A stretch of DNA of 64,000 nucleotides. Source: Paludibacteraceae bacterium. GTDB lineage: Bacteria > Bacteroidota > Bacteroidia > Bacteroidales > Paludibacteraceae. Both the position numbers and the translations under genes were made by a program. The stretch lies in contig JAZNJI010000002.1 in assembly GCA_045577965.1 (NCBI GenBank), positions 4,323 to 68,322 of the forward strand, in the 5' to 3' direction. Positions 32,212-51,798 of this stretch are shown in pieces. Each line of letters begins with the position of its first letter. Position 1 is the stretch's first letter. The notes beneath the pieces were generated by a model that had not been told where the DNA came from, did not search any database, and was given only the letters and a program-made list of their open reading frames with translations.

Positions 32212-32300
32212 CCCATATTAGGCGAAGCCGTCCAATACCCATTAGGCGGAACGCCGTCCATTACCCATTAGGCGAAGCCGTCCAATAGCGAAGCGTCCAC
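32212..32300. repeat. word-array / mini-hairpin repeat
   Basis: attaggcgaagccgtccaataccc attaggcggaacgccgtccattaccc attaggcgaagccgtccaatagc gaagcgtcc. Confidence 0.85.
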
Positions 32301-32996: not shown

Positions 32997-33000
32997 AATC

Positions 33001-33168
33001 TTGTTGTAGCGCTGTGTAGCGGTTGTGTAGTAGCGCTGCGCGCTGTGTAGCAGTTGTGTAGGGTTGTGTAGCAGTTGTTATTCTAGGATTCCATCCTATA
33101 CCACTCTATACCACCCTATACCATGCTATACCATCCTACACCATCCTATACCATCCTACACCATCCCC
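33001..33168. repeat. inverted word arrays (gtgtag words, then ctatacc/ctacacc words) with hairpin agcgctgcgcgct
   Basis: A C-poor half (33001-33090) is followed by a G-free half (33095-33168), between the kinase and peptidase genes. Confidence 0.85.
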
Positions 33169-34202: not shown

Positions 34203-34222
34203 TGTGCAGTTGAAATTTTCTG

Positions 34223-34230
34223 CAAAAGTA
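34223..34230 (-). promoter_or_regulatory. -7 box TACTTTTG for the kinase-peptidase-PqqD-NTase operon
   Basis: 21 nt before ATG 34202. No room for an upstream ORF. Confidence 0.7.
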
Positions 34231-34304
34231 GCAAAAAATACGCACATACGCAAATAAATTCAAAGAAACTCTCATTTTCCTTTGCATATTTGCAAAAAAA
34301 GCCG

Positions 34305-36061: not shown

Positions 36062-36213
36062 CCTTTACACCTTACACCCTACACTTTACTCCCTACCTGC
36101 CACCACATTCCATTGGAACCTCATTGGAACCTCATTGGAACCTGATTGGAACCTCACCGAAGGGTTACCGAAGGAACACAAGGAGACATATAGGGGATGT
36201 ATAAGGGATATAA
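36062..36213. repeat. word arrays upstream of the surface-protein gene
   Basis: cctttacaccttacaccctacactttactccc, then cattggaacc x4, ccgaagg x2 and ataggggatgtataagggatataaatag. Confidence 0.8.
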
Positions 36214-39300: not shown

Positions 39301-39593
39301 CAGCTACAGATGGAACAAAAACCGATGGTACTACCGAATATTATATCGGTGCAGAAGATGGTAAATTATACAAAGGAGTTGTTGATAAACTTGGCCTACG
39401 TGCACTCGTTATAATGACTGACACCGAGGGACAACCACTATCTGTTCGCGCTCGCGTAGTAGTTGGTGAGAACGAAGCTACTGGTATTGAAGATCTCTTC
39501 ACTACCGACGCTCCTGTTAAAGTTATTGAGAACGGTCAACTCATCATCATCCGTGGTGGCGAGAAGTTTAACGCACAAGGCGTGCGCCTTTGA
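36342..39593 (+). CDS. large secreted/cell-surface protein with multiple CBM/Ig-like beta-sandwich repeats
   Basis: 1083 aa. Signal peptide MKKSILFLLALFSVTMTTQA. Repeated aromatic-rich modules (e.g. AGAMNGWSHQAMTKVDETHYTITIEG..YKYSASNNWD) resemble starch/glycan-binding modules. Function not assignable. Confidence 0.7.
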   Translation: MKKSILFLLALFSVTMTTQAADYYYRGEKNGWGEGIKLTLSTDGSYYYYEATAGTHAFKIMENATEWSAKQYRGENIKNGYNGTNVNLTDLGGSDHNCQSKSASKHYILLYLGNNDKTAVVCASTTLPTGLNEVWIKHPWGGGSWSYKQATDNGDGTFSLSAKYGESGCNLNAYNGENAQWWYGLAEIEVEAGLNKGDDAVFTVDAVTRKISVTKKVSKNLGDITITMNCTQQPKIFFWDVEGKTCAAWPGEDMVAAGANTYTYTFEDVDVDLGVNYKINLKEVNENEWNTGDLHTTTDVTHDVSDLNIPKIVVLGVNGDWGSTNTLTELSNDYLTVSKTISVEEVKTHDIKMHVGNNEYQGGNVVDITRANPSSEKFDQNYSYENGKFTADIAGDYVFTYTYKTHTLTVTYPELPTPEYKDITVTVYAKEVPNIWWWNGGDLCPSTEDIVNPSTGNKYKWEEAPAMEKVAGEDNWYTKTFAQVDITKGGIKFKLRSADYSTSTTNEVVTTEDKCYDARVIATVTETTCGELPDGEVPTVTYNVTVPTGTPACYIAGAMNGWSHQAMTKVDETHYTITIEGAEKTQEYKYSASNNWDCVELNEDGSEKSNRTWTENDVVAKWATPAAPVPTTYTVAGDSEAAFGTTWDPTNTANDMALDGELYKWTKTNVALSANTEIKFQVVKNHDWNQGQWPGNGNDWVLNTITEDGLYTITITFKEDDKTINATATKTGDVVTKDFSNQPATLYFHPSFHWTSDHAQFAAYFYNNGPGADAEPTWANMTDSDGDGVYEVANAKQHEYVIICRMNPDRTENKWDDDVMWNQIEHGITIPNTAGDLNTCLAFWTNCQGDVPTSECTWVAPTPLTDKNWGDFIAAYNGKTINAVVERSFKSSQLHTLCLPFDLQTSWLGDGAKAYQITSVVSRTAEELELKTTQCNSLLAGQPYIIQPIKGGEYEHIIVSDVTVENVTAQDYTVSGGDCQVTMQAVAATDGTKTDGTTEYYIGAEDGKLYKGVVDKLGLRALVIMTDTEGQPLSVRARVVVGENEATGIEDLFTTDAPVKVIENGQLIIIRGGEKFNAQGVRL

Positions 39594-39696
39594 TAGTTAT
39601 AAACTATGAGTGATAAGTGATGAGGCAAGAATTGCGGCGCAAGCCGCATTCTCCCCGCCTTTACACTTTACACCTTACACTTTACACTATACACTA
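39594..39696. repeat. word-array / mini-hairpin repeat
   Basis: gtgataagtgatgagg, the hairpin gaattgcggcgcaagccgcattc, then cctttacactttacaccttacactttacactatacac. Confidence 0.8.
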
Positions 39697-39714
39697 AAAC
39701 AAAAAACAGAATTT

Positions 39715-39837
39715 ATGAAAAAAGTATATATCGCGCCTCAAACAGAGGCAATTGAGCTCCTAGGAGAAAACGCCATCATGGTAGGCAGTTCCCTAATTAT
39801 TGGATCTGGCGAAGGTGATGGTGGCGGCATGGGCTAA
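39715..39837 (+). CDS. possible 40-aa peptide with Gly-rich C terminus
   Basis: MKKVYIAPQTEAIELLGENAIMVGSSLIIGSGEGDGGGMG. It lies between a hairpin after the surface-protein gene and the first conserved cassette hairpin. No TAnnTTTG box lies in front of it. Confidence 0.3.
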   Translation: MKKVYIAPQTEAIELLGENAIMVGSSLIIGSGEGDGGGMG

Positions 39838-39882
39838 TCCCGCCCTCCCAAAATTGATTTATTAGCCTTCGGGCTTATCTTA

Positions 39883-39915
39883 CACCACAACCGCTCACTC
39901 TGGGCGGTTGTGGTG
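39883..39915 (+). repeat. conserved cassette hairpin, copy 1
   Basis: caccacaaccgc-tcactctgg-gcggttgtggtg. The 3' flank ttagtccactctttcagaaaaaa is shared with copy 2. Confidence 0.85.
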
Positions 39916-39976
39916 TTGTTAGTCCACTCTTTCAGAAAAAATAAGCCCAATAGTTGCATATTTCAAAAAAAAACAT

Positions 39977-39984
39977 TACCTTTG
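39977..39984 (+). promoter_or_regulatory. -7 box TACCTTTG, cassette 1
   Basis: Preceded by ttgcatatttcaaaaaaaaa, directly after hairpin copy 1. Confidence 0.7.
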
Positions 39985-40034
39985 CAGCGAAAATCTGTAG
40001 CATGATACAAAAATATTAAATAAAACTATGTTTT

Positions 40035-40166
40035 ATGAGTGCAACCGATTACTTAAATAATGCACAAGAGTGGTTAGCTCAGCAATCTCAAAGAACGATT
40101 GATTACCAATGGGAGATTCAGCATCACAACCAAATGCACAAAGCCTACGAAACCTCACTAGTATAA
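40035..40166 (+). CDS. possible 43-aa protein (cassette 1)
   Basis: Manual translation gives MSATDYLNNAQEWLAQQSQRTIDYQWEIQHHNQMHKAYETSLV. It starts 51 nt after a TACCTTTG box and is followed by conserved hairpin copy 2. Confidence 0.25.
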   Translation: MSATDYLNNAQEWLAQQSQRTIDYQWEIQHHNQMHKAYETSLV

Positions 40167-40202
40167 AGCCATCATTCTACTACACACCATTTGATATTCC
40201 AT

Positions 40203-40234
40203 CTCACAACCGTTCTCTCAGGGCGGTTGTGGTG
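40203..40234 (+). repeat. conserved cassette hairpin, copy 2
   Basis: ctcacaaccg-ttctctcagg-gcggttgtggtg, followed by tttagtccactctttcagaaaaaa. Confidence 0.85.
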
Positions 40235-40326
40235 TGTTTAGTCCACTCTTTCAGAAAAAAACATATCGAATAATACTAAATTGCATAAATTTTGTACAAT
40301 AATTTTCAAATTTCAAAAATTTATTG

Positions 40327-40334
40327 TATCTTTG
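40327..40334 (+). promoter_or_regulatory. -7 box TATCTTTG, cassette 2
   Basis: 28 nt before the DUF4160-like ATG. Confidence 0.7.
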
Positions 40335-40361
40335 CAAGCGAAAACAAGAAAATAACATGCC

Positions 40362-40652
40362 ATGCCTAAAGTTCTACAGTATATTACTGCTTATTTTACT
40401 TGGGTTTTTCTCTTCTACGGAACAGATGTCAACGAGAATCGTGCTCATGTACATGTCGGTAAACGTGGCGTAGATAAATTTTGTAAAATTTGGTTAGAAC
40501 CGTTTATTAGTATCGCGGATGCTGGCGATTTAACTCTATCGCAACAAAAGCAAGTTTTACAAATTGTTGAGGAGCAACAAGATAAACTATTGAAGCAATG
40601 GGCATTATTCAAAGAGGGGAAACCTATTAAAATGTTAACCATTAAACGCTAA
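40362..40652 (+). CDS. DUF4160-like protein
   Basis: 96 aa. The N terminus with the NENRAHVHVGKRG His-rich block resembles DUF4160. It is paired with a DUF2442-like gene 7 nt downstream. Confidence 0.55.
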   Translation: MPKVLQYITAYFTWVFLFYGTDVNENRAHVHVGKRGVDKFCKIWLEPFISIADAGDLTLSQQKQVLQIVEEQQDKLLKQWALFKEGKPIKMLTIKR

Positions 40653-40659
40653 TATAACT

Positions 40660-40923
40660 ATGTGTAAAGTAGAAGGATATTGGAATATTACTCCAAAAAT
40701 CAAATGTGTATCTTTCCCTATCCGTGGAAAGATGTCTGTAAAGTTGGAAGATGGTCGTGTGATTATTGTTCCTCTTTCTTCGTTTCCATCCATAAAAAAG
40801 GTTCCTGTCAAGGACCGCTCTAAATGGTATTTAATGGGCGGTGGAGTGACATGGGATAGTTGTCCTGAAGTTATTCATATTGAGCAGATATTAGGTAATT
40901 ATCAGAATTATCAACACGAGTAA
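40660..40923 (+). CDS. DUF2442-like protein
   Basis: 87 aa. VKLEDGRVIIVPLSSFPSIKKVPVKDRSKWYLMGGGVTWDSCPEVIHIEQIL fits the DUF2442 pattern as I recall it. Confidence 0.6.
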   Translation: MCKVEGYWNITPKIKCVSFPIRGKMSVKLEDGRVIIVPLSSFPSIKKVPVKDRSKWYLMGGGVTWDSCPEVIHIEQILGNYQNYQHE

Positions 40924-40985
40924 AAACTGCGTTTCTCCACGCAATCACAAAAACCTGTGCACACCACAGATCTTATAACCCCATC

Positions 40986-41016
40986 CCACAACCGCTCACT
41001 CTGGGCGGTTGTGGTG
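40986..41016 (+). repeat. conserved cassette hairpin, copy 3
   Basis: ccacaaccgc-tcactctgg-gcggttgtggtg, followed by tttttagga. Confidence 0.85.
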
Positions 41017-41090
41017 TTTTTAGGAGTAGCACTTTGTGAAATAATAGGCACTTATTTTATATAACACTTGCATATTTCATTTTTTTTCTG

Positions 41091-41098
41091 TACTTTTG
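41091..41098 (+). promoter_or_regulatory. -7 box TACTTTTG, cassette 3
   Basis: Preceded by cttgcatatttcatttttttt, 30 nt before ATG 41128. Confidence 0.7.
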
Positions 41099-41127
41099 CA
41101 CGGATTTTGTAGATTAATTATTAGACT

Positions 41128-41343
41128 ATGAATACACAAACATTAAACTTTACCATATTCTGTATTGGTAATGTAGCAGAATATCTCAAGATAAATGCCC
41201 GCGATGTATATCATAAAATGCAACAAGCGGACATGATATCTTCTTATATCGTGCCATGCTACGATGTCCTACATTCATTCTCTAAAGAATATATCGTCGA
41301 GGATCTTGTTAACCACATGAAGCAGAAAGGAGTATTACAATGA
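41128..41343 (+). CDS. DUF3791-like small protein
   Basis: 71 aa. It overlaps the downstream DUF3990-like gene by 4 nt, and a paralogous small ORF follows that gene. Confidence 0.5.
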   Translation: MNTQTLNFTIFCIGNVAEYLKINARDVYHKMQQADMISSYIVPCYDVLHSFSKEYIVEDLVNHMKQKGVLQ

Positions 41344-41813
41344 TTACTCTTTATCACACATCCAATCAAGAAGTGCCACAACCTGATGTTCTGCATTCTA
41401 GACAGCACCTCGACTTCGGACGAGGTTTCTACCTAACACCTATCTACGAACAAGCTAAGAAATATGGCGAACGCTTCTTACGCAAAGGCGAAGAAGCATA
41501 CATCAATGTGTATGAACTCGACGAAGATTTAACTGGCTTTACCAAAAAAGTATTTGAGCAATACGACAATCAATGGTTGGATTTTGTTACTGCTTGCAGA
41601 AAAGGACATGACCATCCTCACTATGACATTATAGAAGGAGGTATTGCAGATGACCAAGTGTTCAACACTATAGATTTGTATTTTGCAGGAATATACACTT
41701 ATGAACAAGCCCTTGATCAACTGCGCTACAAGAAACCCAATCATCAGATGTGTATAACAAATGCTAATCTTCTAAAAGAGAAATTACATTTTATTGAATC
41801 GATCAAACTTTAA
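41340..41813 (+). CDS. DUF3990-like protein with PARP/ART-like H-Y-E signature
   Basis: 157 aa. LYHTS (His), GRGFYLT (Tyr) and DIIEGGIADD (Glu) occur in the order and spacing typical of H-Y-E ADP-ribosyltransferases. Confidence 0.55.
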   Translation: MITLYHTSNQEVPQPDVLHSRQHLDFGRGFYLTPIYEQAKKYGERFLRKGEEAYINVYELDEDLTGFTKKVFEQYDNQWLDFVTACRKGHDHPHYDIIEGGIADDQVFNTIDLYFAGIYTYEQALDQLRYKKPNHQMCITNANLLKEKLHFIESIKL

Positions 41814-41818
41814 CTACT

Positions 41819-42028
41819 ATGGAAGCTAATCCGATTATTCTTCAACAGAAATACGCACGTATTGTACAATTGTTCGCAAATAAAGCCGGTTATTCATATG
41901 AGCAAGCGTTGGGAATGTTCTACGACTCCAAAACTTTTGAATTAATCAGCGAAGGAGTAGCTGATATGCATTGCCTAAGCGATGAATACCTCGCTGACGA
42001 ACTCTGCATTGAATATAATATCCACTAG
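41819..42028 (+). CDS. DUF3791-like small protein (second copy)
   Basis: 69 aa. It begins 5 nt after the DUF3990-like gene and is followed by conserved hairpin copy 4. Confidence 0.5.
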   Translation: MEANPIILQQKYARIVQLFANKAGYSYEQALGMFYDSKTFELISEGVADMHCLSDEYLADELCIEYNIH

Positions 42029-42053
42029 ACATCAAAACTCTTTGAACTTATCT

Positions 42054-42083
42054 CCCAACCGCTCACTCAGGGCGGTTGTGGTG
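42054..42083 (+). repeat. conserved cassette hairpin, copy 4
   Basis: cccaaccgc-tcactcagg-gcggttgtggtg, followed by tgtttagga. The left arm is 2 nt shorter. Confidence 0.8.
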
Positions 42084-42100
42084 TGTTTAGGAATATACTG

Positions 42101-42138
42101 CGTGATTGAGTGATGAGTGATAAACTATGAGTGATGAG
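42101..42138. repeat. word array (C-poor)
   Basis: cgtgattgagtgatgagtgataaactatgagtgatgag. Confidence 0.7.
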
Positions 42139-42240
42139 TTTCTACGGACTTTTTGAAAACCTATCAGAAAATGTCCGTAGGAATTCATTACAAAATCATA
42201 AGTCACTCATTATCAAATAAAACCTTTTGTTAAGTAAGCA

Positions 42241-42310
42241 TAGGATATTTAGGAAATTTAGGAATTTCGGGAATTTAATTTCCTAAAATTCCTAAAATTC
42301 CTAATGTTCC
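42241..42310. repeat. palindromic word array
   Basis: taggatatttaggaaatttaggaatttcgggaattt-aa-tttcctaaaattcctaaaattcctaatgttcc. Confidence 0.85.
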
Positions 42311-42864
42311 TTACTTATATTTAGCCGAAAGGATAAGTATGGTATATGAATCATATAGTTATCATATACTAATCTCATAGTAATGTCATAGTATGAACCC
42401 GTCAAGAACCCGTAATTGGTAGTTAATTCAGTAATTCTCCTTGCCTTCGGCAGAAATCTTATTAAATCCTATTGCGCAGATGCCACCCATTTCAAAGCAC
42501 TCCGTGATAAATTGCAACCGCTAGCACTCGCTTTTAGCTCGTCCGCTTAATCTTACAGAATGTGAAGGAGAAACTACTGACAGTGTCAACAAGTATATAA
42601 ATCCCATTCAAAATATTGTTGTACCTTCGAACATCTGCCTGCCTATCGGCATTCCCTCGTAGCCACGTTCGCACAATGCCGGACATACTTCAAACCACTC
42701 GCATTTTTTTGAATGCGGCTTCGCCTTTTATTGAGTTAAAGCTAATGCGCTCTATTGTGAGTAAACTCTCTCCGAGCGCTTAGATTTAACTCAATTGATA
42801 TATAAAATATATCTCCATTCAAAAAAAAATTGCTCGCTTATTTGCGTATGTGCATTTTTTGTTG

Positions 42865-42872
42865 TACCTTTG
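42865..42872 (+). promoter_or_regulatory. -7 box TACCTTTG for pyrH
   Basis: 62 nt before the ATG. Confidence 0.7.
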
Positions 42873-42933
42873 TAGCGGTAATAGTATATTACGCATACCA
42901 CACCCAAAGTTAGAACCATAAAAAAAGACAGAT

Positions 42934-43638
42934 ATGAACAACCGAATACTACTGAAACTTTCAGGCGAAAGCCTCATGGGCGCACAGCAATACGGTATTG
43001 ATCCTCAACGCCTATCTGACTATGCCAACCAAATTCACAACATCGCTAACACTGGCCTACAAGTAGCTATCGTCATCGGTGGAGGCAATATCTTCCGCGG
43101 ACTCAGCGGCGCACAAAAAGGCTTTGACCGCGTCAAAGGCGACCAAATGGGCATGCTAGCCACCGTGATCAACTCGCTCGCACTCTGCTCCGCATTGGAG
43201 GCTGTAGGACAAAAAGCACGCGTGATGACTAGCGTACGCATGGAGCCAATCGGCGAACTATACACAGCTGACAAAGCACTTCGCCTATTGAGCAAAGGAT
43301 ATGTAGTGATCGTGGCTGGTGGCACTGGCAACCCATACTTCACTACCGACACCGCTTCCGTACTCCGCGCCATCGAACTCAAAGCAGATGTGATGATGAA
43401 GGGCACACGCGTGGACGGCATCTACACCGCTGACCCAGAGAAAGACCCTACGGCTACCAAATACACTCAGATCACCTACGACGAGATCCTGGAGATGAAG
43501 CTCAAGGTCATGGACCTCACAGCCATCACCATGTGCCGTGAGAACAACATGCCAATCTATGTTTTTGACATGGACACCGTAGGCAACCTCGAAAAAGTAA
43601 TCAACGGACAACAAATAGGAACACTGGTCAAGCCATAG
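42934..43638 (+). CDS. pyrH: UMP kinase
   Basis: ILLKLSGESL, VIGGGNIFRG and TTDTASVLRAIE are present. Confidence 0.95.
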   Translation: MNNRILLKLSGESLMGAQQYGIDPQRLSDYANQIHNIANTGLQVAIVIGGGNIFRGLSGAQKGFDRVKGDQMGMLATVINSLALCSALEAVGQKARVMTSVRMEPIGELYTADKALRLLSKGYVVIVAGGTGNPYFTTDTASVLRAIELKADVMMKGTRVDGIYTADPEKDPTATKYTQITYDEILEMKLKVMDLTAITMCRENNMPIYVFDMDTVGNLEKVINGQQIGTLVKP

Positions 43639-43642
43639 GCTT

Positions 43643-43716
43643 GGTGTAGAATGGTATAGGATAGTATAGAAGTGGTATAGGATGGTATAGAATAGTATAG
43701 AAGTGGTATAGGATGG
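43643..43716. repeat. C-free word array upstream of four-helix-bundle gene 1
   Basis: ggtgtagaatggtataggatagtatagaagtggtataggatggtatagaatagtatagaagtggtataggatgg. Confidence 0.9.
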
Positions 43717-44117
43717 TTGGATTTGCTACGAAAATAGAAGATTTGAGGATATGGCAAAATGCTCGTACTATCAGTAAAGCTATATACAGCCTCACTTACC
43801 ATGATAACTTTGAGAAAGATTATCGCTTTGTACAACAAATTCGCGCCGCTGCAGGATCTATAATGGATAATATTGCAGAAGGATTCGGAAGAAGTGGAAG
43901 CAAAGAATTTATACAATTTCTTTATATTGCAAGAGGCTCTTGCCAAGAAGTTATTAGCCAACTATACCGTGCATGGGATATTCAATATATTTCTGAGGAA
44001 GAATTCACAGAAACTAAAAAACAGGTCGAGACAACTTCTGTTATGATTTATAACCTAATAGATAATCTCAAGCAATCAGAAAACAAAGGTCCCAAGTACA
44101 GCCCTACACCCCACTAA
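43713..44117 (+). CDS. four-helix-bundle protein (23S rRNA IVS protein / Avd-like family)
   Basis: IEDLRIWQNA...FVQQIRAAAGSIMDNIAEGFGRSGSKEFIQFLYIARGSCQEV is the family signature. A paralog lies at 62361-62762. Confidence 0.8.
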   Translation: MVGFATKIEDLRIWQNARTISKAIYSLTYHDNFEKDYRFVQQIRAAAGSIMDNIAEGFGRSGSKEFIQFLYIARGSCQEVISQLYRAWDIQYISEEEFTETKKQVETTSVMIYNLIDNLKQSENKGPKYSPTPH

Positions 44118-44251
44118 ACCACCCTATACAACCCTACACAGCGCGAAGCGCTACTAAACAACCCTATACAATACTACACAGCGCAAAGCGCTACTAAACA
44201 ACCCTAAACAACCCTACACAACCCTATACAACCCTATACAACCCTATACAA
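44103..44251. repeat. G-free word array with two GCGAAGC-type mini-hairpins downstream of four-helix-bundle gene 1
   Basis: ccctataca/ccctacaca words plus agcgcgaagcgct and agcgcaaagcgct. It runs up to the frr ATG. Confidence 0.9.
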
Positions 44252-44252
44252 T

Positions 44253-44813
44253 ATGATCGAACCTAAAGTTATTTTGAACGACGCAGAGGAATTGATGGAA
44301 TCTGCTGTCATGTACCTCGACGACGCTTTGGCGCGCATCCGCGCAGGCAAAGCCAGTGCACGAATCTTGGATGTAGTCAAGGTGGAATACTACGGACAAA
44401 TGTCGCCACTATCCAATGTGGCTACTATCACCACCCCTGACGCTCGCACCATCCAAATCCAACCTTGGGAGAAGAAAATGCTCTCCGACATCGAACGCGC
44501 ATTGATCAACTCCAGCATTGGTTTGGCTCCAAACAACAATGGCGAGTGCATCCGACTCATGATACCACCATTGACCGAGGAACGCCGTAAAGAACTCGCT
44601 AAGCAATGCAAAGGCGAAGCCGAGAACGCAAAAGTGAGCGTACGCAACGCACGCCGCGATGCCATCGACACCCTCAAAAAGCAAATCAAAGAAGGTTTGC
44701 CAGAGGACGCTGAGAAAGATGCGGAGAACGATGCACAAAAACTTCACGACAAATATGTGAAGCGCATCGACGAAATCTACGCAGCCAAGGAGAAAGAAAT
44801 CATGACTGTGTAA
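44253..44813 (+). CDS. frr: ribosome recycling factor
   Basis: 186 aa. IRAGKASARILD..V.VEYYG, PPLTEERRKEL and RNARRDA are present. Confidence 0.95.
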   Translation: MIEPKVILNDAEELMESAVMYLDDALARIRAGKASARILDVVKVEYYGQMSPLSNVATITTPDARTIQIQPWEKKMLSDIERALINSSIGLAPNNNGECIRLMIPPLTEERRKELAKQCKGEAENAKVSVRNARRDAIDTLKKQIKEGLPEDAEKDAENDAQKLHDKYVKRIDEIYAAKEKEIMTV

Positions 44814-44934
44814 GTTTAGGTTAAAGGTTAGAGGTTAAAGGTTAGAGGTTAAAGGCTAGAAATACCACCCTATACCACCCTACACAACACTACTCTACTG
44901 CTAAACTACTATCGCAAAGCGATCACTCATACTG
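44814..44934. repeat. word arrays (C-free, then G-free) with mini-hairpin
   Basis: gtttaggttaaaggttagaggttaaaggttagaggttaaagg, then ataccaccctataccaccctacacaacactactctactgctaaactact, then atcgcaaagcgat. Confidence 0.9.
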
Positions 44935-44949
44935 ACAATAGCATGGGCA

Positions 44950-46077
44950 TTGGCTATCCCAATGTCTCATGCTATTTCGCTAGATAGCCTGCTTAACCTG
45001 CCCGCTATGGGCATACCTGTCATCAACTACTCACCCGAATCAACATGGGAGTTTGGCGCCGCAGCGCAAGGCTACTTCCGCCTGCCCAACCAAGAGCGTA
45101 CCTCCATCGTGCAACTCGATGGTACCTACTCGCTCAACCACCAGTGGTATATCAATGCGCAAGGGACGCTGTATTTCGGGAATCGGGAGTCCGAAGTCCG
45201 GAATAAAGGAGTAAGCTCTTGGCAACTGCAATTCCGCGCCGGCTATAGCGACCGACCAGCCACCTACTACGGCATCTACCACGACTCCCACTTTGCCAAC
45301 GAAGGCAACACCGGCATCGGCATGCTGCGTCAGGGAACACCCTACCAACTGCAGCGCGGCTATCTCAATATCCAAACACCGATCTATGTGGGCAAAAACA
45401 TAGCTGTCGGGCCAATGGCAGACATGCTCATCGCACGATTCAGCATCCAGGACACCTACACCACCGTCAATCCGCTAGTGCAACTGGCACTGGGTGCTGT
45501 AGCCCAATACGACTCGCGAGACAATGTCTTCTACCCTACCAAGGGTATCTTTGCCAAAGTCACCGCAGCCGCCGCATATACCAACCAGATAGACATACCC
45601 CAAGGACAACAAGCCACCGTCAATGGCCTACTATCTGCTGATTTGCGACACTATGTACCATTGCCCTGTGACCTCGTCTTTGCTTGGCAATTCAAGGCAC
45701 AACTGATGCTATCACCATACCACATCTCCCACCTCACCCTCTACCCTATGCTTCCACGCCTAGGCGGACAAGACGGTATTAGAGGTATCAATAGCGACAT
45801 GTTTCGCGACGACATCATGCTCGCTCTCCAAGCCGAGCTCCGCATACCCATCTGGAGTATCTTCCGCGCCGCTGTATTCGCAGGCATAGGCGATGTGTAC
45901 GACTACCACAACTGGCACTGGGCTGTGCCCAAAGTGGGCTATGGACTCGGACTAAGAGCCGCCATCAACAAAGCCAAAGTAAACATCCGCTTCGACATAG
46001 CCCGCAGCAACATTGACCCACGATGGAATAATATCAATGCCTACAGTTTCTACCTCACCGCCACCGAAGCATTTTAA
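44950..46077 (+). CDS. Omp85/BamA-family outer-membrane beta-barrel protein; start codon uncertain
   Basis: Beta-barrel strands and the terminal aromatic ...YSFYLTATEAF are present. The frame is open upstream to 44905 and encodes a signal-peptide-like KRSLILTIAWALAIPMSHA, but no ATG, GTG or TTG precedes it. Confidence 0.6.
   Translation: MAIPMSHAISLDSLLNLPAMGIPVINYSPESTWEFGAAAQGYFRLPNQERTSIVQLDGTYSLNHQWYINAQGTLYFGNRESEVRNKGVSSWQLQFRAGYSDRPATYYGIYHDSHFANEGNTGIGMLRQGTPYQLQRGYLNIQTPIYVGKNIAVGPMADMLIARFSIQDTYTTVNPLVQLALGAVAQYDSRDNVFYPTKGIFAKVTAAAAYTNQIDIPQGQQATVNGLLSADLRHYVPLPCDLVFAWQFKAQLMLSPYHISHLTLYPMLPRLGGQDGIRGINSDMFRDDIMLALQAELRIPIWSIFRAAVFAGIGDVYDYHNWHWAVPKVGYGLGLRAAINKAKVNIRFDIARSNIDPRWNNINAYSFYLTATEAF
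45177..45209 (+). repeat. array-like segment inside the Omp85-like gene
   Basis: cgggaatcgggagtccgaagtccggaataaagg shares gaatcgggagtc words with the intergenic segment at 23871-23892. Confidence 0.45.
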
Positions 46078-46122
46078 CCACACTACACAATATTGAACAA
46101 CGTTGAACCATTTTGAACCAAC
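46078..46122. repeat. word array
   Basis: ccacactacacaatattgaacaacgttgaaccattttgaaccaac. The ttgaac words also occur at 62.3-62.8 kb. Confidence 0.75.
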
Positions 46123-46126
46123 TTTT

Positions 46127-47119
46127 ATGCGAGGACTAGTTATAAAATCTACTGGTACGAGTTACGGCGTACACTTCGAGGACGGAACAACCGCCGAATG
46201 TCATGTCAAGGGCAATTTCCGCATTCGTGGTATTCGCTCTACTAACCCTATTGCCATAGGCGACCATGTTGAGGTGACGCAACTAGAGGACGGTACCAAT
46301 TGGATCACCGAACTATACGACCGCAAAAACTACATCATCCGCCGCTCCACCAACCTGAGCTATGCCTCACATATCATAGCAGCCAATGTAGATATGGCGG
46401 CATTGATCGTCACACTCCGTCACCCCGAGACATCAACCACCTTTATTGATCGCTTCCTAGCGACCTGCGAAGCTTATCGCGTGCCCGCGTGCATAATATT
46501 TAATAAGGTGGATCTGCTCACCGAAGATGAACTGGAGCAACTATCTACCCTCCGCCAATTATACGAGTCATTGGGCTATCCTACCTACGCTATCTCTGCA
46601 ATAACCCTCACTTCTTCGCCTGATAGCCCAATCGCCCAATCGCCTAATCACCTCATCTCTGCCATCTTTGATGGCAAAGTTACTCTCCTCTCTGGCAATT
46701 CTGGCGTAGGAAAATCTACCCTTTTGAACGCCATTTTAGGCAAAGATGTTGCTCGAACAGGCGCCATCTCCTCTGCCCACCACAAGGGTATGCACACCAC
46801 CACCTTCTCCGAGATGTACCCGCTACACAACACTACACAACACTACACAACACTACACAACACTACCCCACATTCCTGGCTCATCGACACCCCAGGCATC
46901 AAGGGATTTGGTCTGCTAGACATTGAAAAAGAGGAAGTAGGGCACTATTTCCGAGAGATTTTTGAGGTAGCACGCGAATGCCGCTACTCCAACTGCTTGC
47001 ACACGGGCGAGCCTGGATGTGCGGTATATCAAGCAGTGGTAGATGGCAAGATCGCCCTCTCACGCTACGAGAGTTACCTCAGTATCCTAGACGACACCAA
47101 CGAAGGGAAGTATCGTTGA
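46127..47119 (+). CDS. rsgA: ribosome small-subunit-dependent GTPase A
   Basis: OB-fold N terminus, NKVDL, GNSGVGKSTLLNAI, DTPG and Zn knuckle CRYSNCLHTGEPGCAV are present. It contains two in-frame word arrays. Confidence 0.88.
   Translation: MRGLVIKSTGTSYGVHFEDGTTAECHVKGNFRIRGIRSTNPIAIGDHVEVTQLEDGTNWITELYDRKNYIIRRSTNLSYASHIIAANVDMAALIVTLRHPETSTTFIDRFLATCEAYRVPACIIFNKVDLLTEDELEQLSTLRQLYESLGYPTYAISAITLTSSPDSPIAQSPNHLISAIFDGKVTLLSGNSGVGKSTLLNAILGKDVARTGAISSAHHKGMHTTTFSEMYPLHNTTQHYTTLHNTTPHSWLIDTPGIKGFGLLDIEKEEVGHYFREIFEVARECRYSNCLHTGEPGCAVYQAVVDGKIALSRYESYLSILDDTNEGKYR
46614..46652 (+). repeat. in-frame word array inside rsgA
   Basis: cttcgcctgatagcccaatcgcccaatcgcctaatcacc encodes SSPDSPIAQSPNH. 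Confidence 0.7.
46823..46869 (+). repeat. in-frame 10-nt-period word array inside rsgA
   Basis: The unit ctacacaaca is repeated 4 times, followed by ctacccc. It encodes LHNTTQHYTTLHNTTP between the conserved HTTT..E and IDTPG blocks. Confidence 0.85.
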
Positions 47120-47156
47120 TTTATAGTTTATAATTTAAAGTTTAAAGGCTCAGATC

Positions 47157-47771
47157 ATGAAAAAGATTTTATTATTGCCATTTTTGGCATTTGCAATGCT
47201 GTCATGTACAGCTCCTAAAACACAAGAACCTATGCAAAACGAAGTAATCAACGCCATCATGTCACGCCGCAGCATTCGCCAATACCATGCTACTCCTGTG
47301 GCTCGCGACACCATGATGCAAATCATGACCTGCGGAATTAATGCAGCCAACGGTCAAAACAAACAGTCTTGGGAAGTGCGTATCATTGACAACCCAGACA
47401 AGATGCAACAGATTCAAGACCTGATGGTAGCAGGTAACCCTGCTCTACAACCAGAGATGGTACGCGGTTGCATGCGCGGTGCACCAGTGATGACCTTTAT
47501 TGCTCGTGACCTCGGCTACGATTTCTCAGCGTACGACTGCGGCCTACTCGCTGGTAACATGATGTTGGCTGCTCAATCATTGGGCGTAGGTAGCATCTGC
47601 CTCGGTAGCCCCGTGCGTTTTATCAATGACGCAGAGAATAGCGCTGAGATCCTAGCCCTATTAGGCTTTAGCGAAAACTACGAACTCTGCCTCTGTGTGG
47701 GCTTTGGCTATGCCAACGAATCACCCGAAGCTAAACCACGCGACATCAACAAAGTGCAGTATATCGACTAA
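47157..47771 (+). CDS. nitroreductase-family lipoprotein
   Basis: Lipobox AMLSCTAP, the RRSIRQY motif and a nitroreductase fold are present. A strong terminator follows. Confidence 0.8.
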   Translation: MKKILLLPFLAFAMLSCTAPKTQEPMQNEVINAIMSRRSIRQYHATPVARDTMMQIMTCGINAANGQNKQSWEVRIIDNPDKMQQIQDLMVAGNPALQPEMVRGCMRGAPVMTFIARDLGYDFSAYDCGLLAGNMMLAAQSLGVGSICLGSPVRFINDAENSAEILALLGFSENYELCLCVGFGYANESPEAKPRDINKVQYID

Positions 47772-47792
47772 TCTCCCGTCCCAACAATCCCA

Positions 47793-47825
47793 GCCCTCAC
47801 ATCACAACTGTGAGGGCTTTTTATT
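47793..47825 (+). terminator. terminator after the nitroreductase gene
   Basis: gccctcaca-tcacaac-tgtgagggc, followed by tttttatt. Confidence 0.9.
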
Positions 47826-47827
47826 TC

Positions 47828-47910
47828 CCCATATCTATAACCTATAGCCCAAAGGGCGTCCTATAGGCGCCTCGCGCCGTCCTATAGCGGCTCTGCCGCG
47901 TCCTCTAAAC
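47828..47910. repeat. word-array / mini-hairpin repeat
   Basis: ccatatctataacctatagcccaaagggcgtc ctataggcgcctcgcgccgtc ctatagcggctctgccgcgtcc tctaaac. It is an inverted match to 3890-3916. Confidence 0.85.
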
Positions 47911-48206: not shown

Positions 48207-48255
48207 TAATACAACGCTACACAACACAACACTAACCATTCTAAACAACACTACT
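48207..48255. repeat. G-poor word array forming the recA leader
   Basis: taatacaacgctacacaacacaacactaaccattctaaacaacactact, followed directly by ATG. Confidence 0.8.
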
Positions 48256-49263
48256 ATGGCTGAAGAAAAGAAAAATCCGTCCGTAGAGAAACTCAAGGCA
48301 TTGCAACTCGCAATGGAAAAAATTGATAAGCAATTTGGTAAAGGCGCCATCATGAAATTGGGTGATGACAAAGTAGAAGATGTACCTGTAATACCATCTG
48401 GTTCAGTAGGTCTCAACGTCGCACTCGGCGTAGGCGGTTACCCTCGCGGACGTATCGTAGAGATTTATGGTCCAGAGTCTTCTGGTAAAACCACCCTCGC
48501 CATCCATGCTATGGCAGAGGTGCAAAAGCAAGGCGGTATCGCTGCTATCATCGATGCCGAGCACGCATTCGACCGCTTCTATGCAGAGAAACTAGGAGTC
48601 AACACCAACGACTTGCTCATCGCCCAACCAGACTGCGGCGAGCAAGCACTCGACATTGCAGACGAACTCATCCGCAGTGCGGCAGTGGACCTTGTAGTCA
48701 TCGACTCTGTAGCTGCCCTCACCCCAAAAGCTGAGATTGAAGGCGATATGGGCGACAACAAAGTGGGTCTGCATGCGCGACTCATGTCGCAAGCGCTCCG
48801 CAAACTGACAGCTACCATCAACAAGACCAACACCACCTGTATCTTTATTAACCAGTTGCGTGAAAAGATTGGCGTGATGTTTGGTAACCCAGAGACCACA
48901 ACGGGTGGTAACGCGCTGAAGTTCTATGCTTCAGTTCGCCTCGACATTCGCAAATCTACCGCTATTAAGGACGGAGACGAGATTCTTGGTAACCAAGTTC
49001 GCGTGAAAGTCATCAAGAATAAGGTGGCTCCTCCATTCAAGAAAGCGGAGTTCGACCTCATGTTCAACGAAGGTATCTCTCGCGTAGGCGAACTCGTGGA
49101 TATGGGTGTAGAGAAAGGTGTCTTGACCAAGTCTGGCTCATGGTATAGCTACGAGGGCAACAAACTTGCTCAAGGTCGCGATGCGGCTAAGAACGTTCTC
49201 CGCGACAACCCAGACCTCGCCGAAGAGATCGAGAACAAGATCATGGAAGCGCTGAAGAAATAG
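48256..49263 (+). CDS. recA: recombinase RecA
   Basis: [29 protein letters not shown] and [28 protein letters not shown] are present. The track start at 48172 runs through the promoter and a word array. Confidence 0.96.
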
Positions 49264-49440
49264 TCGCTGAGCGACGTAAATGGCGGCAAAGCCGCGAAAA
49301 TGGTCTTCGACGAAAATGGCACCTCTGGTACGAAAATGGTCTTCGACGTAAATTACGTGAAACCACTTTCGTGAGCAAAGCGAGCCACTTTCATGAACGA
49401 AGTGAATCACTTTCGTGAGCGATAGCGAACCATTTAACAT
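49264..49440. repeat. word-array / hairpin repeat downstream of recA
   Basis: The palindrome gtcgctgagcgac, (g)aaaatgg words and cactttcgtgagc..agcga units are present. It is related to 29451-29640. Confidence 0.85.
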
Positions 49441-51031
49441 GAACGAAGTGAACCAAACAACTCTCATATTATCCCCTGAGAAAGCTTACGACGCGGAGCA
49501 ACGCTACCGCGTCGTAAAGCGTTCTATTGATGCCCGCCAGCGTGCGCTCAAGGTCCACCTCACCGTACTTACCGACGAGCATGGTGCACCACTGCCCAAG
49601 GATGCACCTATCCCGCTGTACGAGCCACCACATTTCCAAGATGTACACAACGCCGAGCATAGTGTGGCTATCATCGGCGCAGGCCCGGCGGGCCTATTTG
49701 CTGCGCTCACGCTCATTGAACACGGCATCCGTCCAATCATCTACGAGCGTGGTAAAGAGGTTGCTGAGCGCAAGAAGGACATCGCCACGCTCAACCGTAA
49801 TCAGGGGCTGAATGCCGAGTCCAACTACTGCTTTGGCGAAGGCGGTGCAGGTACTTTCTCCGATGGCAAACTCTTCTCACGTAGCAAGAAACGCGGCAAT
49901 ATGCAACGCGTCATGGAGCTCTTCCACCATTTCGGTGGTGACGACCGCCTATTGTATGAAGCCCATGCCCATATCGGTAGCGACCGCCTGCCCACCATCA
50001 TCCGCCGCATGCGCGAGTGCATCCTCGAACATGGTGGCGAGATCCACTTCTCTACCTGCGTAGATGAACAACTCTTCCGTAGCCTTATCGCCAATAGCCA
50101 ATATCCAATAGGCGGAACGCCGTCCAATAGCCCGTTAGGGCGTCCTGCCCTCTTGGGCGTCATCCTCGCCATTGGTCACTCCGCACATGATACCTACCAC
50201 ATGCTGCATGCCAACGGTGTTGCCCTGGCAACAAAAGGTTTCGCTATGGGCGTGCGCGCAGAGCACCCACAGGCGCTGATCAATAAACTGATGTACCACG
50301 ATCCATCGCCCGAACTCATCCGTTTGGTAGGCAATGCTTCGTATTCGTTGGTGACGCAGGTGCAAGGTCGTGGTGTTTATTCCTTCTGTATGTGCCCAGG
50401 CGGACATATCGTCCCAGCAGGCAGTGCGCTGAATAGTTGTGTAGTTAATGGTATGTCTGCCAGCCACCGCAACTCTCCATACGCCAATTCGGGTATGGTC
50501 GTAGAAATTCGTCCCGAAGACTTGCTCGTCAATAACAATACTACACCACACTACACAATTCTACACCATACTACCCCTGCTCTTGCAGGCCTAACATTCC
50601 AGCAAGAGCTCGAACGCCTTGCCTTTGAATACGGTGGCGAACCATCCTTAGCTCCTGCTCAACGCTTACGCGATTTCGTGGAGGGCAAGGCAAGTAAGAC
50701 GCTACCTGCATGTAGCTATCTGCCAGGCACGGTGTCCAGCCGCCTTGACCAATGGTTACCCGAACATATCGGCAAACGCTTGCAACAGGGATTCCGCGAT
50801 TTCGACCGCAAATATCGAGGTTTCTTGACCAACGAAGCCGTTATCCTTGGCGTAGAGAGCCGCAGTAGTAGCGCTGTGCGTATTCCTCGCGATCCCGAGA
50901 CACTGCAATCTATATCCACGCCTCACCTTTATCCTTGTGGTGAAGGAGCAGGCTACGCAGGCGGCATCACCTCCTCCGCACTCGACGGCATCAATGTCGC
51001 CCTCAAAATCGCCGAACGCATTACCCACTAA
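49439..51031 (+). CDS. FAD-dependent oxidoreductase (COG2509-like)
   Basis: VAIIGAGPAGLFAAL dinucleotide fold and CFGEGGAGTFSDGKL are present. It contains two in-frame word arrays. The track start at 49415 lies in an array. Confidence 0.75.
   Translation: MNEVNQTTLILSPEKAYDAEQRYRVVKRSIDARQRALKVHLTVLTDEHGAPLPKDAPIPLYEPPHFQDVHNAEHSVAIIGAGPAGLFAALTLIEHGIRPIIYERGKEVAERKKDIATLNRNQGLNAESNYCFGEGGAGTFSDGKLFSRSKKRGNMQRVMELFHHFGGDDRLLYEAHAHIGSDRLPTIIRRMRECILEHGGEIHFSTCVDEQLFRSLIANSQYPIGGTPSNSPLGRPALLGVILAIGHSAHDTYHMLHANGVALATKGFAMGVRAEHPQALINKLMYHDPSPELIRLVGNASYSLVTQVQGRGVYSFCMCPGGHIVPAGSALNSCVVNGMSASHRNSPYANSGMVVEIRPEDLLVNNNTTPHYTILHHTTPALAGLTFQQELERLAFEYGGEPSLAPAQRLRDFVEGKASKTLPACSYLPGTVSSRLDQWLPEHIGKRLQQGFRDFDRKYRGFLTNEAVILGVESRSSSAVRIPRDPETLQSISTPHLYPCGEGAGYAGGITSSALDGINVALKIAERITH
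50084..50145 (+). repeat. in-frame word-array/mini-hairpin insertion inside the FAD oxidoreductase gene
   Basis: cttatcgccaatagccaatatccaataggcggaacgccgtccaatagcccgttagggcgtcc uses the same words as the intergenic array at 32212-32300. Confidence 0.8.
50530..50577 (+). repeat. in-frame G-free word array inside the FAD oxidoreductase gene
   Basis: caataacaatactacaccacactacacaattctacaccatactacccc encodes NNNTTPHYTILHHTTP. Confidence 0.8.
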
Positions 51032-51112
51032 CCACCCTACGCAACACAACACTACACTATACTACCCTACACTACACTATACTACACCACACTACACAAT
51101 ACTACACAACCC
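51030..51112. repeat. G-free word array forming the tcdA leader
   Basis: accaccctacgcaacacaacactacactatactaccctacactacactatactacaccacactacacaatactacacaaccc. Confidence 0.9.
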
Positions 51113-51114
51113 TT

Positions 51115-51798
51115 ATGTTTACACGAACGATACAACTCATAGGCGAAGACGGCTTTCGCGCGTTGCAGAATGCTCGCGTGATACTCTTCGGCGTGGGCGG
51201 CGTGGGCGGTTGGTGCGCAGAGACACTCCTGCGCACAGGCATCGGACACCTGACCCTGGTGGATTTCGACAAAGTGGACACTACTAACCTCAACCGTCAA
51301 GTGGTAGCTACCCACAATAATATCGGACAAAGCAAAGTCCTCGAGATGCAAAAGCGCCTTCTCAATATCGCTCCTGAAGCAGATATTCAAGCCATTGACC
51401 GACAATACAATGCCGATACAGCAGACTCCTTCGACCTCACGCAATACGACATCGTGATTGATGCCATCGACATGGTGGAGTGCAAAGCACTACTGCTCTA
51501 CCGTGCGACACAAGCGGGTTGCAGAGTGTATTCTAGCATGGGTGCAGGTCGCAAAACCGATCCACAAAAGATTCGCACCGCAGAGTTTTGGAAGGTACAA
51601 GGCTGCCCTCTCGCGCGTGCCTTACGTACCAAAATGAAAAAGGCAGGACTAATGCCTGCCTCTAAGATTCAATGTGCCTATTCCGAAGAGATCAGTGGAG
51701 ACCAAGGTACCCTCGCCCCTGTCGTGGGCGTATTTGGCATGACCCTCGCCAGCTTGGTAATCAATGACCTAAATAATCATTCGAACTGCTCCGCGTAG
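51115..51798 (+). CDS. tcdA: tRNA threonylcarbamoyladenosine dehydratase (ThiF/E1-like)
   Basis: ARVILFGVGGVGGWCAETLLRTGIGHLTLVDFDKVDTTNLNRQ is present. Confidence 0.8.
   Translation: MFTRTIQLIGEDGFRALQNARVILFGVGGVGGWCAETLLRTGIGHLTLVDFDKVDTTNLNRQVVATHNNIGQSKVLEMQKRLLNIAPEADIQAIDRQYNADTADSFDLTQYDIVIDAIDMVECKALLLYRATQAGCRVYSSMGAGRKTDPQKIRTAEFWKVQGCPLARALRTKMKKAGLMPASKIQCAYSEEISGDQGTLAPVVGVFGMTLASLVINDLNNHSNCSA

Follow-up and report, generated by a model that had tools for sequence, protein, structure and literature searches.

Complementary three-letter word arrays around PF05635 genes at operon junctions of a Paludibacteraceae bacterium

We analysed a 64-kb stretch (hereafter the window) of contig JAZNJI010000002.1, assembly GCA_045577965.1, from an uncultured gut or rumen member of the Bacteroidales, of the Paludibacteraceae type. 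A first-pass annotation of this DNA had described tandem word arrays in the intergenic spacers, with 44103-44251 as the exemplar. This exemplar is the 3' arm of a cassette that resembles the intervening sequences (IVSs) of rRNA and contains an open reading frame (ORF) of the PF05635 family. The cassette (cassette 1; 614 bp, 43639-44252) is inserted between pyrH (42934-43638) and frr (44253-44813), and a second one (cassette 2) lies between tkt and leuS. The design in which a gene is enclosed by a stem has hitherto been known only from rRNA IVSs; here it stands between the genes of operons. Taken together, the observations below incline us, with modest confidence, to the explanation that the arrays represent selfish cassettes of the rRNA-IVS type, accompanied by ORF-less stems and solo arms, whose stems are processed by RNase III and whose arms are remodelled by slippage. 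That most arrays of the window derive from cassettes and that the stems are processed as RNA is plausible.

PF05635 cassettes at pyrH-frr, tkt-leuS and other junctions

The sequence of the exemplar was as described in the first-pass annotation, namely G-free 10-mers of the ccctaYacaa type and two mini-hairpins, agcgcGAAgcgct (44140-44152) and agcgcAAAgcgct (44180-44192). The array is real, but its assigned start, 44103, lies 15 nt inside the PF05635 ORF of cassette 1, and the array words encode the C-terminal tail of this ORF, SPTPH. C-free and G-free forms had both been noted; what had been missed was that they pair as reverse-complementary arms around the two PF05635 ORFs (Table 1), which were themselves overlooked, and the earlier interpretation was supported only in part. 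For example, the 5' arm word ggtatagg is the reverse complement of cctatacc. PF05635 corresponds to the 23S rRNA intervening-sequence protein (S23p), a four-helix bundle that resembles Avd, the accessory protein of diversity-generating retroelements (PMC10053308).

In the minimum-energy fold of 43625-44265, the segment 43639-43712 paired with 44102-44252 and the ORF was enclosed between them. The energy of the cassette 1 fold was -146.7 kcal/mol, compared with -129 +/- 6 kcal/mol for shuffles (z = -3.0). When the whole of cassette 2 was folded, a long stem closed the ORF and the mini-hairpin formed a side branch (z = -6.7). In cassette 1, no start-codon triplet was present in the 3' arm, and the 74-nt 5' arm had 9 stop triplets. 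Scans of cassette 1 for promoters and terminators revealed no signal above chance, and the TAnnTTTG motif was absent from the arms. We also observed that the C-free arm holds repeated minimal start-stop ORFs (AUG GUA UAG) at 43641-43712, and that the start codon of the PF05635 ORF of cassette 1 is part of an array word (ggATGGTt).

PF05635 homologues with E < 1e-20 numbered 1933, and cassettes with closely related ORFs were found at five junctions. A 94% identical homologue lies at pyrH|frr (5' arm 93-113 nt, 3' arm 61 nt), an 81% identical one between an aminoacyl-tRNA synthetase gene and gpsA (67 nt; 33 or 53 nt), and a 79% identical one at PqqD|NTP_transf_5 of GCA_045578815.1 (41 nt; 91 nt). 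In a sister species, a 75% identical homologue between the FAD-dependent gene and ThiF has a constant C-free 5' arm of 37 nt and a 3' arm of G-free actactcMaY 10-mers, which measured 49, 49, 69, 89, 109 or 170 nt in six assemblies with identical ORFs. A 70% identical homologue at WbqC|aminotransferase has a C-free 5' arm of 65-110 nt and a 3' arm of 13 nt. All five cassettes carried GGTRTAG/GGAGTAG-type words upstream and CTAYAC/CTACTC words downstream. Because these words are shared at different junctions, the arms evidently travel together with the ORF clade. The neighbours of the PF05635 genes were housekeeping genes, and the six annotated junctions were all co-directional.

A metagenome scan using an alignment of these proteins yielded 65 non-redundant loci (L113-L192) with ORFs 45-81% identical. 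Almost all of them had tandem words upstream and the reverse complements of these words downstream, such as gtttaag/cttaaac, agttcaat/attgaact, gatttcag/ctgaaatc, gttctaac/ttagaac and ggaaat/atttcc. When the downstream flank was reverse-complemented, it had at least three 7-mers in common with the upstream flank at 44 of the 65 loci, compared with 19% of mismatched-pair controls. The duplex between the arms had a mean energy of -34.4 kcal/mol versus -20.9 kcal/mol for shuffled arms, and single arms folded weakly (-9.7 and -7.8 kcal/mol per 80 nt versus -16 for coding DNA). G exceeded C in the upstream flank at 23 loci and C exceeded G at none; in the downstream flank, C exceeded G at 24 loci and G exceeded C at 2. 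This polarity reads identically on both strands and thus belongs to the inverted repeat as such. The PF05635 core was strongly conserved up to KGPKY and was followed by a tail such as SPTPH, NTEPH or TTPHYPILPNTTQY; these tails are the array read through as far as the first TAA.

Strain polymorphism, repeat grammar and origin of the arrays

Ten assemblies (L081-L090) encode a Frr protein identical to that of the window. Cassette 1 was present in 4 of these and absent from 6, in which a 5-nt spacer, taacc, was found instead. Its arms in L081, L083 and L084 were 53 nt (5') and 75 nt with one hairpin (3'), compared with 74 nt and 135 nt with two hairpins in the window. Cassette 1 is also missing from L001, the closest species representative, whose Frr is 96% identical and whose genes share about 86-88% DNA identity with those of the window; in L001, about 10 nt of spacer (taataatc) separate pyrH from the frr ATG. 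The tkt|leuS position of cassette 2 was kept in 10 other assemblies, where the 5' arm was a constant 49 nt and the 3' arm 79, 89, 99 or 109 nt; this variation falls just past the stop codon of the ORF. The stem of the cassette 2 hairpin was unchanged across assemblies, whereas its loop changed from GCA to GGA. Arm lengths differed by whole units in cassettes 1 and 2 and in the other cassettes (49-170 nt and 65-110 nt).

Spacers without an ORF varied in a similar manner. The Omp85-like|rsgA junction was seen in three states: 1 nt in L001, L087 and L089 (in L001, effectively no spacer), a 39-nt ctttacaccataca array in L081-L084, and the 49-nt array of the window. In L087-L090, the G-free part of the spacer after frr was swapped for a ggcagcAGAGctgcc hairpin followed by three to four copies of cctctcg, and L001 has two copies of the 14-mer after frr versus three in the window. 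The recA leader contained atactataca three times in L081 and four times in L083, in contigs that were otherwise near-identical. The content of the recA|FAD-dependent junction also differed in other strains. The comparison of orthologous spacers that the first-pass annotation had suggested thus revealed both presence/absence and copy-number polymorphism. When filled and empty sites were compared, target-site duplications and shared ends were absent. Three different gene neighbourhoods (hexapeptide transferase, SufBD or Peptidase_C10) were also observed upstream of pyrH in L081-L090; since Frr is identical in all of them, pyrH lies at a rearrangement breakpoint.

In favour of artefacts of short-read metagenome assembly, most contigs bearing these PF05635 genes are < 2 kb, and exact copy numbers from short reads may be off. 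The same arrays, however, recur in >40 independent assemblies, and the same junctions and frame-preserving in-gene arrays were found in dozens of assemblies that had been produced independently and by different assemblers. The polymorphism was itself seen in independent assemblies, and we regard an artefact as a negligible possibility.

Tandem Repeats Finder (TRF) returned 88 rows for the window, which collapsed to about 40 arrays that did not overlap and had units of 7-20 nt. Nearly all lay outside genes; in-frame words inside rsgA and the FAD-dependent gene had escaped the first-pass annotation. The share of DNA covered by arrays was 16.5% in co-directional spacers, 13% in divergent spacers and 1.0% in coding sequence. 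They occurred in 18 of 29 co-directional spacers, for which the earlier wording, most, was generous. Similarly, the array spacers are not ordinary AT-rich DNA, but the promoter-bearing spacers are, with the Bacteroidetes TTTG...TAnnTTTG motif. The claim of a non-random grammar whose words vary by locus was confirmed, since runs, arrays and hairpins were all far above chance. On the + strand, runs of at least 30 nt were G-free in 34 cases, C-free in 21, A-free in 2 and T-free in 3. G or C was missing from 16 of 40 TRF arrays (at least 25 nt), compared with 4.5 expected from random genomic words of the same period after tandemisation; the three-letter rule is borne out by this excess of about 3.5-fold but covers about 40% of the arrays and not all. 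A-free or T-free arrays were not found among the 40. The same bias was observed across 80 related loci, in which 84 of 332 arrays lacked G or C (29 expected) and 7 of 332 lacked A or T (30 expected). CTAHAC-N4-CTAHAC gave 39 matches at 13 loci versus 0.07 expected. GC mini-hairpins, defined as a 5-bp GC-rich stem with a 3-4 nt loop, numbered 12 in 9.0 kb of spacers versus 0.54 expected. This enrichment of about 20-fold upholds the earlier description of hairpin punctuation, but the GAA loop occurs in one hairpin only. The AGCGC stem recurs among the mini-hairpins, and GCGCNNNGCGC was found at only five sites in varied contexts.

Several other accounts of this grammar were rejected. A G-depleted coding strand was ruled out by the composition of the sense strand (G 0.238, C 0.221). 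In the window, the CTAYAC family occupied 11 sense loci versus 2 antisense loci; as a general rule, G-free on the sense strand failed in the 80 related loci (37 G-poor versus 45 C-poor arrays), and the order C-free then G-free, being identical on both strands, is uninformative about the strand. The idea of a G-quadruplex or i-motif was dropped since CCC runs are confined to some arrays. Mimicry of the 16S rRNA segment GCUACACACGUGCUACAAUGG was set aside as probably a low-complexity coincidence. Rfam and tRNA scans of the window gave no matches, and no rRNA was found by Rfam.

The arrays could also be ordinary lineage-specific minisatellites with units of 5-11 nt, produced by slippage wherever tolerated and devoid of function, in which case the PF05635 genes would merely sit in or recruit such DNA. 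Consistent with this, whole-unit copy-number changes separate near-identical contigs, arrays occur in every spacer class and in 1% of coding DNA, and they amount to 150-550 bp per 10 kb, away from any PF05635 gene, in many related Bacteroidales metagenome-assembled genomes (MAGs). The exemplar word aaccctaaac resembles the native pyrH end (aaaccctaa) of relatives, and long simple-sequence repeats dominated by heptamers are known in other bacteria (PMC4679880). Slippage alone, however, fails to account for the G-free/C-free excess with its A-free/T-free deficit, the constant G-rich-then-C-rich polarity, the complementary arms at 44 of 65 PF05635 loci, the single 10-mer family at 13 loci, and the same words beside related ORFs at different junctions. 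We consider this explanation possible but doubtful.

According to the cassette explanation, which we favour, selfish IVS-like cassettes would inhabit transcribed operon junctions and be co-transcribed with the operon. Co-transcription is suggested by the co-directional orientation of the six annotated junctions and by the lack of promoter and terminator signals in the arms. An arm written in three letters has no stable self-folding, and the restricted alphabet would keep it free of internal structure until its partner has been made. The two arms would then zip together and place the ORF in a loop, as in the ORF-bearing 23S rRNA IVSs of Coxiella and Leptospira, in which the stem is a target of RNase III (PMC4990558). 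Such an insertion may be tolerated for two reasons: by analogy with the IVSs, the stem would fold away and probably be cut by RNase III, and the G-free arm would provide the next gene with a structure-free, AUG-free leader. Such a leader would suit Bacteroidota, because Shine-Dalgarno sequences are not used and initiation is tuned by mRNA structure (PMC6847099). The G-rich-then-C-rich polarity would set stop-rich sequence behind the upstream gene and unstructured, G-free, AUG-free RNA before the downstream start. Replication slippage would lengthen or shorten the arms in whole words, and tandem words would tolerate the resulting register shifts.

The ORF-less stems, solo arms and in-frame arrays are probably derivatives or relatives of cassettes. 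Three solo arrays tie them together. The spacer at 51032-51114 lies at the FAD-dependent gene|ThiF junction, where the sister species has a PF05635 cassette whose 3' arm ends in the same way (caacccYY ATGTTTACA); the ORF-less array at 32243-32299 lies at the PqqD|NTP_transf_5 junction, which is occupied by a PF05635 cassette in GCA_045578815.1; and the solo array at 46091-46121 matches the 3' arm of cassette 2 with 87% identity over 31 nt. Furthermore, the end of the FAD-dependent gene, ...acccacTAAccaccctac (51020-51045), is nearly identical to the end of the PF05635 ORF, ...ccccacTAAaccaccctat (44105-44130), which hints that a deletion may have joined the FAD-dependent gene to what a lost cassette left behind, its tail and 3' arm.

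Solo G-free arrays end exactly at the starts of tcdA, serS, recA and tkt, with a minimum free energy of about 0 and 0 start triplets. In particular, the minimum free energy was 0.0 kcal/mol for 96 nt at 51025-51120, 51032-51114 contained neither start nor stop triplets, and no G was found in the 50 nt upstream of the serS, tcdA and frr starts. These properties would also be expected if the arrays were host-beneficial cis-acting RNA signals, namely structure-free, AUG-free ribosome landing pads, C-rich and G-poor Rho-loading (rut) sites whose length would set the expression of the gene that follows, or binding arrays for S1, cold-shock or KH-type proteins. Rho is suited by G-poor, C-rich RNA of 70-80 nt. 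Polymorphism of 49-170 nt before one gene would allow graded effects. In addition, initiation in Bacteroidetes needs an unstructured initiation region (PMC6847099), and TAACTGA repeats near starts were proposed to be regulator-binding sites (PMC4679880). Against such signals, in sister strains these genes work behind spacers of 1-5 nt, words and array types are swapped between strains, sequence-specific conservation is missing, and arrays in frame within genes cannot serve as leaders. Arrays abutting start codons in other genomes were C-poor and G-poor about equally often (18 versus 17). We therefore judge a host-beneficial role unlikely as the primary explanation.

The last count also weakens the leader argument of the cassette explanation, and further observations weigh against that explanation. 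An ORF is present in only 2 of about 25 array spacers of the window, and PF05635 was absent from 80 related frr loci (L001-L080, 1.3 Mb), 25 of which are array-rich; arrays can accordingly occur where no cassette is present. They are also found in divergent and convergent spacers. The complementarity of the arms is imperfect; z reached only -2 to -3 in cassette 1 and was near 0 in L094. Within 44814-44961, the C-free half does not pair with the G-free half (z = +0.8). The antisense duplex between the arms was slightly more stable than the sense duplex (44 versus 21 loci, p = 0.04), which is unexpected if the stem is selected purely in sense RNA; antisense was also favoured in the window stems 32990-33165 and 49255-49445. 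Finally, neither a recombinase nor a target-site duplication was found that would explain mobility.

Comparison with known elements

The first-pass annotation had regarded the arrays as an unrecognised kind of repeat. Indeed, they are not repetitive extragenic palindromic sequences (REP) or bacterial interspersed mosaic elements (BIME), enterobacterial repetitive intergenic consensus sequences or clustered regularly interspaced short palindromic repeats (CRISPR), but two close kinds have been described, the ORF-bearing 23S rRNA IVS (PMC4990558) and long simple-sequence or heptamer repeats before starts (PMC4679880).

The Coxiella IVS is a selfish element in which an S23p ORF is bordered by complementary termini and which is cut by RNase III (PMC4990558). 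The cassettes resemble the 23S rRNA IVSs of Coxiella and Leptospira in the PF05635 protein placed in the loop (E = 5.6e-35 and 2.7e-33 here), in complementary borders that form an ORF-enclosing stem (z = -3.0 and -6.7 in the window; 44 of 65 loci), and in a sporadic distribution among strains (4 present and 6 absent with identical Frr) together with selfish character (PMC4990558). They differ in location, as the IVSs lie in rRNA helix 25, 45 or 9 and the window cassettes at pyrH|frr and tkt|leuS. Moreover, the IVS stem is fixed at about 28 bp, whereas the cassette arms are hypervariable arrays of 7-10 nt words in complementary three-letter alphabets.

Long simple-sequence repeats, including TAACTGA heptamers, were reported in a few Bacteroidetes, Paludibacter among them (PMC4679880). 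These and the short tandemly repeated repetitive sequences of cyanobacteria likewise consist of tandem 5-11 nt units, mostly intergenic and often just before starts, with unit-step indels between strains and occasional copies within ORFs. TAACTGA (MacGregor 2015), however, had 0 matches in the window with up to 2 mismatches. The window also differs in its many words per genome, the G-free/C-free bias and the GC mini-hairpins, and its paired complementary arms, fixed polarity and PF05635 association are undescribed for those repeats.

Like REP/BIME (REPIN), the window elements are intergenic, lie behind stop codons within operons, contain small GC hairpins and occur in many dispersed copies. 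On this basis they could be DNA-level elements, including those like miniature inverted-repeat transposable elements (MITEs), whose hairpins in single-stranded DNA are moved by a transposase encoded elsewhere in the genome, for example a REP-associated tyrosine transposase (RAYT) or an IS200/IS605-type enzyme. The enrichment of mini-hairpins in spacers with the recurrent AGCGC stem, a composite of about 180 nt in two spacers 20 kb apart, and the slightly more stable antisense-strand duplex agree with this possibility. CTAC, the complement of the GTAG motif of REPs, is also present in the words. However, no conserved 20-40 nt palindrome was found; the bulk consists of tandem words, the loops and stems of the hairpins vary, and leader/tail structure and target duplication are missing as well. 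No RAYT and no other transposase was found within the 64-kb window. Nor are mini-hairpins general to cassette arms, since they occurred in 12 of 65 downstream arms versus 7 of 65 control pieces. A DNA-level element is therefore very unlikely.

CRISPR repeats are 23-47 nt long and separated by unique spacers of similar length, whereas the units of the window are contiguous and 7-20 nt long. BrickBuilt of Porphyromonas gingivalis is, like the present arrays, an intergenic Bacteroidales element built from a tandem short unit; it consists of one 23-nt unit flanked by leader and tail subunits, ends in inverted repeats, never lies inside genes and bears promoters (PMC4596501). In contrast to BrickBuilt and MITEs, the window arms contain many words and have no leader or tail, promoter motif, target duplication or shared ends. 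Involvement of a diversity-generating retroelement was rejected, as neither a reverse transcriptase nor a template/variable repeat pair was found nearby. Rickettsia palindromic elements are in-frame insertions in conserved protein genes and are tolerated as an extra surface peptide. They are palindromic units of about 100-150 bp, unlike the tandem 10-mers described here.

A more radical version of the cassette explanation is that the PF05635 elements form a recombinase-free mobile class of "zipper cassettes". An Avd-like pentamer would bind its own arrays, as RNA or single-stranded DNA, promote templated extension or transfer to new stop|start junctions and thereby seed the three-letter arrays found across these genomes, including those in essential genes; the rRNA IVS would be a special case that landed in rRNA. 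We think this proposal quite improbable.

The function of S23p/PF05635 proteins and the mobility of rRNA IVSs have been standing questions since the 1990s. The presence of the gene-in-stem design in ordinary operons, combined with polymorphism among near-identical strains, supplies natural mutants for comparison. The cassettes further suggest a rule by which complementary alphabets, a C-less arm and a G-less arm, pair only with each other, and by symmetry the next gene always receives a G-free, AUG-free leader. In conserved proteins (RsgA, the Omp85-like protein and the FAD-dependent protein), word arrays lie in frame and are swapped between strains. In practice, such arrays interrupt assemblies from short reads and lead to wrong ORF calls in MAGs of rumen and gut Bacteroidales. 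We found no published description of PF05635 genes armed with word arrays outside rRNA, in a literature search of incomplete coverage.

Other arrays of the window

Table 1. Cassettes, arrays and hairpins of the window
Feature	Position	Strand	Description
Near-perfect hairpin	3985-4062	-	tgcggtttt x4 and aaaaccgca x4; fold z = -9.5 (3985-4070)
ddl|polyprenyl-synthetase spacer	9196-9297	+	Mini-hairpin words and aggttaa words common with 44817-44858; families D11, D12
ORF-less stem after tpiA	29451-29641	+	Families D8/D14; fold z = -3.8 (29445-29645)
PqqD|NTP_transf_5 array spacer	32243-32299	-	GC mini-hairpin words
ORF-less arm pair between two minus-strand genes	32997-33155	-	ggtatagg 10-mers, then ctacacaac words with agcgcTGCgcgct hairpin
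ORF-less stem	39594-39714	+	C-free atgagtgataagtgatgagg, gcggcGCAAgccgc core, then G-free ctttaca x5; fold z = -5.0 (39590-39720)
Hairpin	42241-42304	+	taggaaatt and ttcctaaaa words; fold z = -8.2 (42230-42315)
Cassette 1 5' arm	43639-43712	+	C-free ggtatagRRt 10/21-mers; begins directly after pyrH stop codon; 74 nt
Cassette 1 PF05635 ORF	43713-44117	+	134 aa; Pfam E = 5.6e-35
Cassette 1 3' arm	44102-44252	+	G-free ccctaYacaa 10-mers, two mini-hairpins; ends at frr ATG (44253)
frr|Omp85-like spacer	44814-44961	+	C-free aggttaa/aggttag words, then G-free ccaccctaYac, then atcgcAAAgcgat hairpin (44911-44923)
Omp85-like|rsgA spacer	46078-46126	+	Solo array (family D15)
rsgA in-frame array	46823-46877	+	ctacacaaca x4.4; peptide LHNTTQHYTTLHNTTPH; loop before HSWLIDTPG
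recA leader	48211-48255	+	G-free array ending at recA ATG (48256); family D4
ORF-less stem, recA|FAD-dependent gene	49264-49438	+	cgaaaatgg words, then ccactttcgtgagc words, mini-hairpins; families D8, D14
FAD-dependent gene in-frame array	50529-50578	+	G-free 10-mers; peptide NNNTTPHYTILHHTTP
FAD-dependent|tcdA/ThiF spacer	51032-51114	+	83-nt G-free array; resembles solo 3' arm
serS leader	57094-57150	+	G-free 10-mer array ending at serS ATG; 0 start triplets
tkt leader	60227-60298	+	G-poor; gcccgCTTGcgggc hairpin (60249-60262)
Cassette 2 5' arm	62312-62360	+	agttcaa words, between tkt and second PF05635 ORF
Cassette 2 PF05635 ORF	62361-62762	+	133 aa; Pfam E = 2.7e-33
Cassette 2 3' arm	62763-62847	+	ttgaac words and agcgcGCAgcgct hairpin (62788-62800); ends at leuS ATG

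The ORF-less stems at 29451-29641 and 49264-49438 are the two copies of the composite element mentioned above. The fold of 49255-49445 gave z = -3.4 in the sense and -5.6 in the antisense direction, and that of 32990-33165 gave -6.8 for the + strand RNA and -1.5 for the sense RNA. The ctttacac words of 39594-39714 were also found at 36062-36098 (family D18).

Arrays inside genes preserved the reading frame. The rsgA array occurred as variants in four strains; that of L001 was 30 nt (three units, 10 codons) shorter than that of the window, and L082 had a different array, ttgaaactN, of similar length at the same site. The Omp85-like gene of the window carries an allele of gggagtcc/gaagtcc words. 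In L001 and L083, it carries instead a G-free 10-mer allele, 18 nt longer, that encodes ...YTTLHHTTPHSW, near to ...YTTLHNTTPHSW of rsgA. The reverse orientation contains TAG, so that all three reading frames are open only when the array is read as G-free; selection would thus explain the orientation of the in-gene arrays. A second array in the FAD-dependent ORF (50098-50132) is an 89% copy of the spacer words at 32232-32266 and includes the GC mini-hairpin ccaataNccattaggcggaacgccgtcc (family D13). On the minus strand, 33156-34247 encodes a 363-aa ORF that has no Pfam match and contains a sense G-free 10-mer array at 33797-33848; it may be a single gene that has the array in frame, or a pair of genes separated by an array spacer.

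Other features of the window were also observed. The nitroreductase gene (47157-47771) and its flanks (47133-47860) are missing in L001 and have word arrays on both sides. Two copies of a 33-nt direct repeat, tatgaacccgtcatgaacccgtaattgatagtt, 94% identical, were found at 3845-3877 and 42392-42424, separated by 38.5 kb. Either copy has a perfect word hairpin at a distance of about 100 nt, and the first adjoins a DUF3987 gene and a Fic gene; the copies may mark the ends of an integrated element or what remains of its attachment sites. Within 39715-42933, a cluster of small ORFs was found whose units are each accompanied by a Bacteroidetes-type promoter and by one of four hairpins that are nearly identical (cacaaccgctcactctgggcggttgtggtg; families D6/D7), and this region looks like a repeated small-peptide gene module. 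At the window edge, 426-2131 encodes a DpnII-type restriction endonuclease and a D12-class adenine methyltransferase, a GATC restriction-modification pair.

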